Shown one piece after another: positions 2,308 through 34,381 of a DNA stretch of 64,000 nucleotides (position 1 is the first letter of the stretch; every line of letters starts with the position of its first letter). The stretch lies in contig CAZVTA010000001.1 in NCBI GenBank assembly GCA_964629815.1, forward strand, positions 118,357-182,356, written 5' to 3'. The translations under genes and the position numbers were made by a program. The DNA comes from an uncultured Candidatus Saccharibacteria bacterium (GTDB taxonomy: Bacteria; Patescibacteriota; Saccharimonadia; Saccharimonadales; AWTP1-31). The notes beneath the pieces were generated by a model. That model ran no database searches. It was not told the DNA's origin and was given only the letters and a program-made list of their open reading frames with translations.

Positions 2308-3372
2308 TTAGCGAAGTGCTGCAAGGCGCGTAATCTGGTCGGTAGATAGATCGGTATTACCAGTAAGCGTGAATAAGTTGCCATCCTTGATCCATGAGGC
2401 GCTCTTATTGCCGGCTACAAAAATTGTTATGCCGCCCTTTTCGATGCGCTGATAGTCGTTGGTGTTTTGAGACAAAGTTGCCTCTAACTCGCTCGAATTT
2501 TTATACGCAGACAACTGCTGGTCTACTTGTATCCAGCGGTCGTCGTTGTGCGAAAGATATCGGAAGCTTACCAAACCATGCGAATAGTCGATGGCGTTCG
2601 ACAGAGAAAAACCTGCTGGTGCTGTACCCGGAAGCTGCATGGCAACCCCCGCTTGCTTCGCCGCCATTGCGTAACTTATTTTGGCGCTGTTTTGTACGCC
2701 GATGAATCCGGAAAGAATCACAACTATCGCCACAATAGCCAGAGCGTTGACGCTGCGTTTGGGTTTAAGCGAAAGCTTGGGTGCTTGGTGTGTCGATGCG
2801 TTTACGAGTGCATTGTGCAGTATGCGTTCGGTTGCTGCATGGTTTGTGGAGGCTTTTGGTGTATGCTGTGCTGCCTGAGTTTGGTGAGTGGATTGTGGAA
2901 CCACGGGCGCAGATTTAACAGAAATGCTGCCTTGTTTTTTTATAACTTTAGCAAGACCATGAGTGCCAAATTTTGATATTACCGCACTTTTTGATACTGC
3001 TTGGGCACGCGCAAGCTTGTCGGGGGCAACACTGTGCGCCCGTGGTTTGTTGTGTACGGGTATAGTGTACGCAATGCTACTGGTTGCTTTGATATGCTGG
3101 CTGTGAGGTTTTTTTACCCCGGTACGCATGAGGGTTTGCGCGCTTTTCGTACGGACATGTATGCTCGTAGCCTTCGCTGCTTTATGGTGAATTTGTCGTT
3201 CGGCTGGTTTGTGTTTTGGGGGCGAATGAGGCGTAGTATGCACCTGGATTGGTGTTGTTTTAGGTGCCTGCGGCACAATAGTTGAATTATTGACCGCTGT
3301 TTTGAGCGGCAAGCCACTGATCGCGTCGTATACGCGACCATTGATAACGATAGTTGTTTGTTTTGCGCTCAC
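2308..3372 (-). CDS. hypothetical single-pass membrane protein with a low-complexity basic N-terminal region
   Basis: 354 aa. One TM helix (ALAIVAIVVILSGFIGV). The N-terminal ~200 aa are rich in K/H/T/S/A. The C-terminal extracytoplasmic domain is unrecognised. Confidence 0.45.
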   Translation of the reverse strand: MSAKQTTIVINGRVYDAISGLPLKTAVNNSTIVPQAPKTTPIQVHTTPHSPPKHKPAERQIHHKAAKATSIHVRTKSAQTLMRTGVKKPHSQHIKATSSIAYTIPVHNKPRAHSVAPDKLARAQAVSKSAVISKFGTHGLAKVIKKQGSISVKSAPVVPQSTHQTQAAQHTPKASTNHAATERILHNALVNASTHQAPKLSLKPKRSVNALAIVAIVVILSGFIGVQNSAKISYAMAAKQAGVAMQLPGTAPAGFSLSNAIDYSHGLVSFRYLSHNDDRWIQVDQQLSAYKNSSELEATLSQNTNDYQRIEKGGITIFVAGNKSASWIKDGNLFTLTGNTDLSTDQITRLAALR

Positions 3373-18683: not shown

Positions 18684-18840
18684 AAAAAAACTCCTTTCTG
18701 TCTACACCGCTGGGTCGAGTCAGAAGGAGCATGCCTTGCGATATCTTCCCCTTGCGGGCTGAACGTAGCACCGTACCACGAATGGTTGGTTGCTGGTGGG
18801 TCGACGGGTCAGATCCCTCGCCACACTCTTGATACTTAAA
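18684..18840 (-). ncRNA. SAM-I (S-box) riboswitch with terminator/SD-sequestering expression platform
   Basis: The minus strand reads GUAUCAAGAGUGUGGCGAGGGAUCUGACCCG...CAGCAACC...GGUGCUACGUUCAGCCCGC...GGAAGAUAUCG, which matches conserved SAM-I blocks. It is followed by the hairpin CUCCUUCUG...CAGAAAGGAG + U7 that contains the metK RBS, immediately 5' of the metK ATG. Confidence 0.65.
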
Positions 18841-32247: not shown

Positions 32248-32382
32248 TTCAAAGTTGATGCTGGCACAAATTTAAGTCGAAGAGCCGTACCCTTCCCAGA
32301 AAAATACAAAAACAGCCCACAAAACGTGAACTGCTTTTGTATGGCTCCGGGGAAAGGATTCGAACCTTCGACCTAGTGGTTA

Positions 32383-32922
32383 CACTTGTTCGTTATTTTC
32401 ATAACGTGTGGACTATATCATCATCCATAAACGGATGTTGGGCGCTGATGAACGATTATTGTTAGGCTCACGTTCTAGTCTCTGAACCTTCCAAACTCCT
32501 TTATCCTAAGCTTGGCTTGGCTGCGGATTACCTTATCTTTCGACGTAGGCTTCCCGACAATTCACCCAATTTTCACTACTTAGTTTCCCAAGTAGGCTGC
32601 TTATAGCCTGCGTGAATTTCCCGATGACAGTTTGCACACAGAAGCACACATTTGTCTGCCTCTGCTTTATTCTTTTCCCAAGATCTTGTAAGTCCACTAG
32701 AGGATATACCAAAATCTTTTTGAGATGCATCTTTGTGGTGAAGATCGAGTGCATTAATACACTCATCGTAACCGCAGATGATGCATGCACCGCCTTTGTA
32801 GTCAACAAGCATTTGTCGGACTTTTTGGCGACGCTTAGCCACTGCCTTCTTGAGATATTCAGCGCGATCGGCATAACTTCGTCTATCTGGCATACACATA
32901 ATTGTATGCCAAAGTGTCGACT
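32383..32922 (-). mobile_element. group I intron (about 540 nt) in a tRNA anticodon loop, carrying an HNH ORF
   Basis: Contains the conserved group I core elements P (AUUGUCGGGAAGCC), Q (UAAUCCGCAGCCAAGCC), R (GGUUCAGAGACUAGAACG) and S (GAUAUAGUCCACACG). The 5' exon ends in U and the intron ends in G. Confidence 0.8.
32576..32899 (-). CDS. HNH homing endonuclease encoded in the intron
   Basis: CIICGYDEC...LDLHHKD...CVLLCANCHREIHAG is an HNH motif with two CxxC pairs. Its start codon lies in the loop of a 9-bp hairpin (UGGCAUACA/UGUAUGCCA). Confidence 0.8.
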   Translation of the reverse strand: MCMPDRRSYADRAEYLKKAVAKRRQKVRQMLVDYKGGACIICGYDECINALDLHHKDASQKDFGISSSGLTRSWEKNKAEADKCVLLCANCHREIHAGYKQPTWETK

Positions 32923-33035
32923 ACAGCCACCCGCTCTACCGCTGAGCTACCCCGGAATATGCAAATAAGGTTCTTTGCGAAATACGCAACCGCCAAATTA
33001 TATCTAAAATAACCCCTTATGGCAAGCGGTGCGAT

Positions 33036-33913: not shown

Positions 33914-34381
33914 TTAGCGACTATGGTGTTTTATGGCAGCGTGAATGGCGCGGGTTTCGTCGCGTTTTTTGAGTGATTGGCGTTTGTCATATTGTTTTTT
34001 GCCACGGCCGACTGCAATTCGTACTTTTATATAACGACCAGCAGTCAGGATTTGTAACGGGACGATAGATTTTCCTTGTTGCTTAGCTTCGATGAGCTTA
34101 TCGATTTCGCGTTGCTTGGCGAGCAACTTACGTGTTTGCGTAGATTCACTTTCGCTAATAGGAACACCAGGCATACCGGCAATGGTCGCATTGAATAGCC
34201 ATAGCGAGCCGTCTTTAATGGTTACATATGCGCCACGAAGATGGCCATGTCCATGGCGCAGTGCCTTGGTTTCTCGGCCATTGAGTACAATGCCAACGAC
34301 AAGATCGTCCCCGAGCTCGTAATCGTGCCGGGCACGACGGTTGGCGATTGCTTTTGGTGTGGCTGACTTATGTTTTGTCAT
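33914..34381 (-). CDS. smpB: SsrA-binding protein
   Basis: NRRARHDYELGDDLVVGIVLNGRETKALR matches the SmpB N-terminal signature. Confidence 0.9.
   Translation of the reverse strand: MTKHKSATPKAIANRRARHDYELGDDLVVGIVLNGRETKALRHGHGHLRGAYVTIKDGSLWLFNATIAGMPGVPISESESTQTRKLLAKQREIDKLIEAKQQGKSIVPLQILTAGRYIKVRIAVGRGKKQYDKRQSLKKRDETRAIHAAIKHHSR

Follow-up and report, generated by a model that had tools for sequence, protein, structure and literature searches.

A tRNA-Asn(GUU) gene interrupted by a group I intron lies on the minus strand of a 64,000-nucleotide (nt) stretch of contig CAZVTA010000001.1, which we call the window and whose numbering is used for all coordinates of the element. We are highly confident that the locus represents the tRNA-Asn(GUU) gene of a Saccharibacteria-like bacterium of the Patescibacteria (candidate phyla radiation, CPR), and that a self-splicing group I intron, with an HNH homing-endonuclease gene lodged in its P1 loop, splits the gene between anticodon positions 35 and 36. 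An earlier note, made from the sequence of the window, had proposed a tRNA-Asn(GUU) gene split by a group I intron encoding an HNH endonuclease, while hesitating over the splice junction; once the junction is set at 35/36, the proposal is well supported. The attribution of the host follows the labels of the nearest loci (72–85% amino-acid (aa) identity), every one of which is listed under Candidatus Saccharibacteria or Saccharimonadales. This kind of element has already been published with experimental proof (Nakagawa, Amikura, Omae and Suzuki, mSystems 2026, PMC13011429; preprint 10.1101/2025.07.03.662931), and the window locus is therefore a further member of a described class. Nothing in it is new in kind: the part that goes beyond published work is the comparative pattern around the endonuclease gene.

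Exons, ribozyme core and splice junction

The 5′ exon (32956–32923, minus strand, as for all parts of the gene) has 34 nt, UCCGGGGUAGCUCAGCGGUAGAGCGGGUGGCUGU, which correspond to standard nt 1–35 and end in ...GGCUGU, these last 6 nt (32928–32923) making the 5′ strand of P1. Next comes a 540-nt intron (32922–32383) closed by its omega-G at 32383, then by a 41-nt 3′ exon (32382–32342, UAACCACUAGGUCGAAGGUUCGAAUCCUUUCCCCGGAGCCA) that comprises U36, A37 and A38, the 3′ strand of the anticodon stem, the variable loop, the T arm, the 3′ strand of the acceptor stem, G73 and an encoded CCA. The two exons recognised in the earlier note are indeed there: joined, they give a canonical 75-nt cloverleaf with anticodon GUU when ARAGORN is run on the spliced sequence, and the same program, in its intron mode, independently places a tRNA-Asn(gtt) at c[32342,32956], interrupted by 540 nt. 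The split gene, which is the sole tRNA-Asn found by ARAGORN within the 64 kb, escapes the standard tRNA scans of ARAGORN and Rfam.

The intervening sequence has a complete group I core. The Rfam model RF00028 matches 32651–32390 over its full length (positions 1–253) with 98.9 bits (E=2.3e-24, for a gathering threshold of 50), a score that chance would not give, and the P, Q, R and S strings singled out from the sequence map to J3/4-P4, P4′-P6, P6′-P7 and J8/7-P7′, respectively, of the RF00028 alignment. The internal guide sequence (IGS) GCAGCC, which is the 3′ strand of P1 (32600–32595), is located 322 nt from the 5′ splice site and pairs with exon GGCUGU, with a U35·G wobble. The P2 hairpin UACUUGG-GAAA-CUAAGUA (32594–32577) comes next, with compensatory changes at 7/7 pairs; it includes the stop codon UAG (32578–32576) of the open reading frame (ORF) borne by the intron. 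The 5′ strand of P3 (32569–32563) is followed by a domain that extends through P4–P6a to 32486, placed by the Rfam alignment and by covariation, with P4 (32559–32553/32527–32522), P5 (32549–32547/32533–32531), P5a (32544–32542/32537–32535), P6 (32521–32519/32488–32486) and P6a (32515–32508/32498–32491). P7 (32480–32476/32415–32411) reads GACUA/UAGUC and is invariant in 52/52 sequences; it encloses a P7.1 hairpin (32475–32471/32454–32450), the 3′ strand of P3 (32444–32438), a helix that covaries, and P8 (32437–32432/32427–32422), which covaries as well. The P9 hairpin CGUUAU-GAAA-AUAACG (32406–32391), with compensatory changes at 6/6 pairs, is then followed by GAACAAGUG, which ends in the terminal G.

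Covariation was measured on an alignment in which the window and 51 relatives are each represented by their ribozyme part, IGS through terminal G, onto which the helices defined on the window sequence (P2, P3, P4, P5, P5a, P6, P6a, P7, P7.1, P8 and P9) were projected. Standard pairs fill 87.4% of helix cells, versus 66% in shuffles and 33–45% when partners are slid by 1–3 columns. Compensatory changes, affecting both sides, appear in 47/59 core pairs, and each of P2, P3, P4, P6, P6a, P8 and P9 covaries. The failure to fold P3–P9 that would have spoken against a group I intron is not seen. In the segment between P7 and the 3′ strand of P3 (window 32475–32450; alignment columns ~230–283) a single hairpin, whose loop UGAGCCUAACAAUAAU is conserved, is the rule for introns of the Saccharibacteria type; two hairpins (P7.1/P7.2-like) are found in most other relatives, and a few lack any. 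The window hairpin occupies the place of P7.1/7.2 in IA introns, a correspondence of position.

As announced from the sequence, the intron is preceded by U and ends in G. The 7-nt anticodon loop allows five possible closures, of which only 33/34, giving tRNA-Thr with anticodon UGU, and 35/36, giving tRNA-Asn with anticodon GUU, obey this rule. The choice between them, left open in the earlier note, now resolves in favour of 35/36. If the host were tRNA-Thr(UGU), the intron would be shifted two bases upstream on both sides and the exons joined as CU|UGUAA; in the window the U before the intron and the G at its end are compatible with this register too, and for roughly one in two homologous loci the call by ARAGORN is Thr(tgt). 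The pairing of P1 nevertheless speaks for Asn: with GCAGCC placed directly 5′ of P2 and facing GGCUGU, the wobble falls at U35, whereas U33 would pair with an A of the IGS and the Thr register would lack its U·G wobble. Nearly all of the 61 loci have GCAGC(C/U) in this place, immediately 5′ of P2, and in ORF-less relatives the IGS lies 5–10 nt past the 5′ splice site, compared with 322 nt in the window. Read in the Asn register, the introns of 60/60 relatives end in G; read in the Thr register, only 41/60 do, and 19 would be left without their terminal G. Bacterial tRNA-Thr normally begins with G1-C72, while U1-A72 and G73 are features of tRNA-Asn; G73, together with the anticodon, makes the identity elements of asparaginyl-tRNA synthetase, and U1-A72 serves the transamidation pathway. 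The tRNA of the window has both the U1-A72 pair and G73, and so have 61/61 homologous loci. A contig of the Logan assembly of SRR16481183, the last 140 nt of which are identical to the window, stops exactly at 32923, after GGCTGT rather than after GGCU. Finally, the spliced product of a homologue was sequenced as Asn, and the Thr call was described as a tool artefact (PMC13011429). On these grounds we reject the Thr junction, which we regard as exceedingly improbable. The supported junction is 35/36, giving tRNA-Asn(GUU), and the spliced product is predicted to include GGCUGUUAACC.

The endonuclease gene and its start-codon hairpin

The ORF (32893–32576, minus strand) codes for 105 aa from a conserved MPD start, or 107 aa if counted from 32899. 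It sits in the P1 loop, and its final ~25 nt overlap the IGS and P2, so tightly that the CAG of the IGS doubles as a conserved Gln codon and the stop codon falls inside P2. Its assignment to the HNH nucleases follows from matches to the PHROG families 2255, 3106 and 35854, all 'HNH endonuclease' (E=9e-30 for 2255, to 8e-19), and from an invariant motif CxxC...HH...N...CxxCH...H, with C39, C42, H54, H55, C88, N90, C91, H92 and H96 as invariant columns of the alignment of homologues. There are 1662 such homologues, many of them of ~105 aa and 60–88% identical, one being named as from Ca. Saccharibacteria. Neither the 105-aa nor the 107-aa form is found as an exact sequence on any database record, the best match having 88% aa identity. 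Among solved structures, a profile search of the PDB retrieves the HNH domains of 6me0, a group II intron maturase/reverse transcriptase (E=3.7e-5), and of McrA, 6ghc (E=0.04). The AlphaFold2 model of the product has a predicted local distance difference test (pLDDT) score of 86.9, and its top Foldseek matches, none of them significant, are almost all HNH nucleases (Cap5, Cas9 HNH, Gme HNH, T4 endo VII).

The beginning of the ORF is folded. A 9-base-pair (bp) hairpin, UGGCAUACA-AUUAUG-UGUAUGCCA (32911–32888, minus strand), holds a first AUG (32899–32897) in its loop and the conserved start AUG (32893–32891) in the 3′ strand of its stem. The earlier note had described a 107-aa ORF with its AUG in the hairpin loop and had seen there a possible translational control: ORF and hairpin are real, the loop AUG is not the conserved start, as homologues begin at MPD/E, that is, at the second AUG (32893), and it is this stem AUG that the control would concern. 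Conservation supports such a role. When 44 homologous leaders are folded, the start AUG is fully paired in 41, and 40 of these have it in this very hairpin, of which the consensus is UGGUAUAC...GUAUGCCA. Free-standing copies of the ORF, introduced below, are preceded by the hairpin as well (8/10), and we therefore see it as part of the endonuclease cassette, not of the ribozyme. No Shine-Dalgarno sequence is evident at the ORF in the window. Translational sequestration of the start site of an intron-encoded endonuclease is known from phage T4, with I-TevI in the td intron. The likeness is in a hairpin that hides the start codon where the ORF begins; the window differs by the lack of an evident Shine-Dalgarno sequence and by a hairpin that also goes with free-standing copies.

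The following scenario accounts for these features. Transcription would start from the promoter-like site upstream of the gene. In the precursor, the IGS, though 322 nt into the intron, would pair with the exon end to make P1 with its U35·G wobble, as sequence and conservation indicate, and the P3–P9 core, supported by covariation, would fold. An external guanosine would attack after U35, the terminal G (32383) would then take the place of this guanosine, and ligation of the exons would make CUGU|UAA, hence a normal tRNA-Asn, as established in vitro for a homologous intron (Nakagawa et al., 2026, PMC13011429). The 105-aa HNH protein would be translated from the sequestered AUG, so that its expression is probably low or confined to one form of the RNA. 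Because the IGS and P2 make up the last codons of the ORF, translation through to the stop codon should preclude formation of P1/P2, and vice versa. As expected from its family, the protein may nick or cut intron-less tRNA-Asn genes, repair then copying the intron into them, a process known as homing, for which the linkage of the whole family to tRNA-Asn genes and the assembly breaks at the borders of intron and ORF, both described below, are indirect evidence.

Several points weigh against this interpretation of the locus. Splicing and its junction in the window are predictions made from sequence, as are the activity, target site and cleavage mode of the endonuclease. P1 has just 6 bp in the window and 4–5 bp in many relatives, and covariation of P1 with the anticodon stem, looked for among the relatives, is absent (the IGS reads GCAGC(C/U) whatever nt 30/31), because CUGU is invariant in tRNA-Asn; by inspection there is no convincing P10 pairing of the 3′ exon with the flank of the IGS. 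Something other than allele polymorphism could explain why the contig stops at 32923. Pfam and NCBIfam give no family at threshold for the ORF, PF01844 staying below its cut-off (13.6 bits versus 21.4, E=0.075), and Foldseek has no significant match in the PDB (best E 0.14). Lastly, the search for a second tRNA-Asn covered 64 kb of the genome only. This last point would leave room for a dead or dying locus, with inefficient splicing or an inactive ORF, in a cell supplied with functional tRNA-Asn from elsewhere in its genome. Homing endonuclease genes commonly decay after fixation, and the fragments of tRNA-Asn that we describe below as ghosts tell of a rearranged locus. We nevertheless consider a dying copy very unlikely: every core helix is intact, with P7, IGS and terminal G fitting the family consensus, the ORF is full length and has all the invariant residues of the family, and the exons give a perfect cloverleaf.

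Relatives, ghost fragments and neighbouring features

The gene that we read as a homing endonuclease belongs to a family present in at least 574 species-representative genomes, mostly of Patescibacteria, as well as in 267 stretches of viral contigs and 387 annotated phage genomes. In what follows, labels such as L014 denote genome loci, L083–L161 viral contigs and L162–L164 annotated phages. Among 80 genome loci the ORF is inside the intron in ~65. In nine (L014, L021, L034, L041, L042, L046, L057, L066 and L068) an intact ORF precedes a tRNA-Asn gene that has an ORF-less intron of 190–255 nt, the two genes being 3–66 nt apart or overlapping by 10 nt. In two further loci (L049 and L053) the order is reversed, the ORF following closely on such an intron-containing tRNA-Asn, and in 2–3 (including L026 and L078) it stands beside an intron-less tRNA-Asn. 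Seven ORF-less introns score 38.7–80.4 bits in Rfam, four of them above the gathering score; that of L041 has no Rfam match at E<=0.001. In viral contig L112, where the ORF is also outside, tRNA-Asn has a 194-nt intron that reaches 54.1 bits when scanned alone and is unsupported at the default filters of Rfam. Free-standing ORFs lack the C-terminal Gln-Pro/Leu encoded by the IGS and P2. In a neighbour-joining tree of HNH cores (82 columns, no support values, hence of qualitative use only) free-standing genome copies are interleaved with intron-borne ones.

Some loci, namely L014, L017, L021, L025, L026, L069, L070, L073, L076 and L077, come from metagenome-assembled genomes labelled Gammaproteobacteria, Pseudomonadales, Pyrinomonadaceae or Limisphaerales, which may reflect either transfer beyond Patescibacteria or mis-binning. 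A LOOT RNA (RF03000, 71.9 bits) is found at 3336–3459 of L041, ~240 nt downstream of its intron-containing tRNA-Asn.

Viruses have mostly the free-standing form, placed within tRNA arrays. The immediate neighbour of the ORF is an intron-less tRNA-Asn(GTT) in 36/60 distinct viral cases, where Asn makes up 45 of 387 tRNAs, and in four cases tRNA-Asn is on both sides. Among annotated phages, Bacillus phage Bastille (L162) has the order tRNA-Asn, HNH, tRNA-Asn, Klebsiella phage Muenster (L163) has tRNA-Asn followed by HNH, and in Synechococcus phage S-WAM2 (L164) the HNH gene overlaps tRNA-Asn. We found no account of this association of HNH genes with phage tRNA-Asn in the literature searched, which is no proof of its absence. 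In viral contig L083 (1766–1888), a free-standing HNH gene is immediately followed by a phage tRNA-Asn that contains a 48-nt insert exactly at 35/36, ending in G. A ribozyme would not fit in this length, and the insert may be what is left of an intron or may serve to disrupt the target site.

Taken together, the inside, outside and intron-less arrangements look like stages in the invasion of an intron by an endonuclease gene. We propose, tentatively and with a belief that falls slightly short of even, that one HNH lineage specific for tRNA-Asn moves among three states: free-standing by an intron-less tRNA-Asn, free-standing by a tRNA-Asn with an ORF-less 35/36 intron, and inside the P1 loop, fused to the IGS and P2.

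Borders of assembled sequences bear on the same question. Contigs from two sister samples begin at 32617, 17 nt before the IGS, and ten related contigs end 100 nt or less from the 3′ end of the tRNA. Independent Logan assemblies of the same organism (L001/L165, L166 and L167) show breaks at 32923, exactly the 5′ exon-intron junction, and at 32617. The breaks at these two positions suggest that co-occurring alleles differ in the segment made of the P1 loop and ORF.

An alternative is that the present role of the ORF is not, or not only, homing: its product might be a maturase-like splicing helper or a nuclease put to other use, the intron being kept because its precise loss from a single-copy essential tRNA is impossible. 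The closest sequence relative of solved structure, 6me0, is after all a maturase of group II introns, matched in its HNH domain, intron-borne ORFs are conserved in many lineages, and Nakagawa et al. favour retention by constraint or regulation (PMC13011429). We nonetheless deem such a role unlikely. The family members that stand free beside tRNA-Asn in many phages and genomes cannot be maturases, the catalytic and zinc-binding residues are invariant, the assembly breaks at the borders of intron and ORF suggest ongoing polymorphism, and a homologous tRNA-Asn intron of Patescibacteria splices protein-free in vitro (PMC13011429).

Downstream of tRNA-Asn and its terminator the window contains two partial copies of the tRNA, or ghosts, presumably linked to the element. 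Ghost 1 (32248–32158, minus strand) is made of a copy of tRNA-Asn nt 43–56 (32248–32235), a 59-nt insert in the T loop (32234–32176) and a copy of nt 58–75 with one mismatch (32175–32158). It is followed by a terminator (32147–32125, minus strand) homologous to that which comes directly after the tRNA in the relative L008, and would retain the ancestral terminator. Ghost 2 (31665–31636, minus strand), a shortened copy of the right end of ghost 1, combines the last 8 nt of the ghost 1 insert with the tail of the tRNA (CGUAGCGC|AUCCUUUCCCCGAAGC). Between them lies an ORF of 122 aa (32117–31751) that has no Pfam match; no integrase is seen nearby. Ghosts are found downstream, on the 3′ side, in 7–8 of 50 loci, and on the 5′ side in three of 61 (L010, L022 and L029), and the tail of each fits that of the tRNA-Asn of its own host. 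Downstream examples are L018 (~3116–3260), L039 (~3130–3255), L062 (~3112–3248) and L080 (~3134–3275), to which L005 and L017 must be added; several of these ghosts adopt a tRNA-like fold, closed by an acceptor-like stem and containing a 9-bp hairpin and a T stem that widens into a three-way junction, and those of L018, L062 and L080 show the 9-bp hairpin with an expanded T arm. Rfam has no matching family for the ghosts, even at E up to 10 for that of the window. Charging of transfer-messenger RNA (tmRNA) by alanyl-tRNA synthetase needs A73. Ghost 1, with smpB 1.6 kb upstream, was considered as a tmRNA and rejected, as ARAGORN and Rfam return nothing and its acceptor-like end has G73, not A73. 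The insert was also rejected as a miniature inverted-repeat transposable element (MITE) repeated in the window, its only extra copy being ghost 2. The ghosts may be relics of recombination, old attachment sites or a functional tRNA-like RNA.

Other features of the window can be listed briefly. A promoter-like site TTGCCA-17 nt-TATAAT (32997–33025, minus strand), which lies upstream of the tRNA and ~40 nt from its 5′ end, scores 11/12 in a consensus scan, and a terminator-like hairpin with a U-run (32304–32342, minus strand) comes directly after the tRNA; both are pattern matches only. The smpB gene (33914–34381, minus strand) is on the same strand, 1 kb upstream of tRNA-Asn, and no tmRNA gene was found in the 64-kb window by ARAGORN or Rfam. 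Further away, a SAM (S-adenosylmethionine) riboswitch (RF00162) is found at 18738–18838 on the minus strand, with 50.7 bits, slightly above its gathering score of 44.4.

Known systems and what the locus means

That Asn would be an unusual host, as the earlier note had it, is out of date. Williams (2020; bioRxiv 10.1101/2020.01.27.920355) catalogued introns placed after the fourth loop nucleotide of tRNA-Asn as 'Asn.4Ug', and the introns at 35/36 of tRNA-Asn, present in 15 tRNA-Asn(GUU) genes of 95 complete Patescibacteria genomes, are the commonest tRNA introns of this phylum (PMC13011429). The latter study reported in-vitro self-splicing of a homologous tRNA-Asn intron (GCA_016700035.1), with a ligated product sequenced at 35/36, traced the Thr calls of ARAGORN and tFind to a two-base artefact, assigned the Patescibacteria tRNA-Asn introns to subgroup IA and, having found HNH (PF01844) genes in four of them, which is 4/333 introns of complete genomes, inferred limited mobility. 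The window shares with this class its host tRNA, the 35/36 site, the Asn/Thr ambiguity of ARAGORN, an intron of more than 500 nt with an HNH gene, detection by RF00028 and, judged by nearest relatives, its phylum. It differs in that its locus and ORF are identical to no record, and the spread of its ORF family contrasts with the four HNH introns of the published set. With Asn.4Ug the window has in common an intron with U before it and a terminal G, located after the fourth nucleotide of the anticodon loop of tRNA-Asn. The tFind survey of Williams also mentions 'ghost exons' called by ARAGORN near real ones; it is purely a survey and, as far as its text shows, analyses neither the ORF and where it sits in P1 nor what the ghosts are.

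The classical tRNA introns of bacteria interrupt tRNA-Leu(UAA) at 34/35, tRNA-fMet at 33/34 (with the PD-(D/E)XK enzyme I-Ssp6803I), and tRNA-Arg(CCU) and tRNA-Ile(CAU) at 36/37. They are, as in the window, self-splicing group I introns of the anticodon loop, with a P1 that involves the anticodon stem and loop and the same R and S core sequences. They belong however to subgroup IC3, with other tRNAs, positions and endonuclease families, whereas those of Patescibacteria are reported as IA (PMC13011429). SegB of phage T4 (PMC2330249) resembles the relatives of our ORF as a free-standing endonuclease in a phage tRNA cluster, but it is of the GIY-YIG family and is not tied to one tRNA, in contrast with the adjacency to tRNA-Asn of the HNH family. 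Another parallel comes from phage genes that code for proteins. Bonocora and Shub, and Zeng, Bonocora and Shub in 2009, reportedly described 'collaborative homing' and the invasion of introns by endonuclease genes, in genes such as psbA or that of DNA polymerase. The likeness is in a free-standing endonuclease gene set beside a gene with an ORF-less intron that interrupts the likely target (L014, L049, L053, L112 and others), and in the same ORF found inside the intron in relatives, as in intron invasion. Here, by contrast, the target would be a tRNA gene, and all the putative stages are within one ORF family.

There is a practical side to these observations. Standard tRNA finders miss the gene or name it Thr, so that the genome would seem to be without tRNA-Asn. 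This pitfall of annotation was already raised for Patescibacteria (PMC13011429). As to mobility, the ORF family is widespread and stays with tRNA-Asn whether inside or outside the intron, which suggests that the mobility of tRNA-Asn introns is underestimated; the arrangements with free-standing ORFs may call into question the immobility inferred for ORF-less ones. If the three-state proposal is true, 'ORF-less' tRNA-Asn introns would be mobilised in trans, contrary to the immobility at present inferred for them, phages could plausibly carry them from phylum to phylum, and the ghost fragments of tRNA-Asn, together with the breaks exactly at the borders of intron and ORF, would be footprints of ongoing turnover. 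The family would then also display, in nature, the successive steps by which a group I intron acquires mobility. All the arrangements expected for the invasion of an intron by an endonuclease gene coexist in one family, which would suit tests of the origin of mobile introns and of their crossing between phages and ultra-small bacteria.

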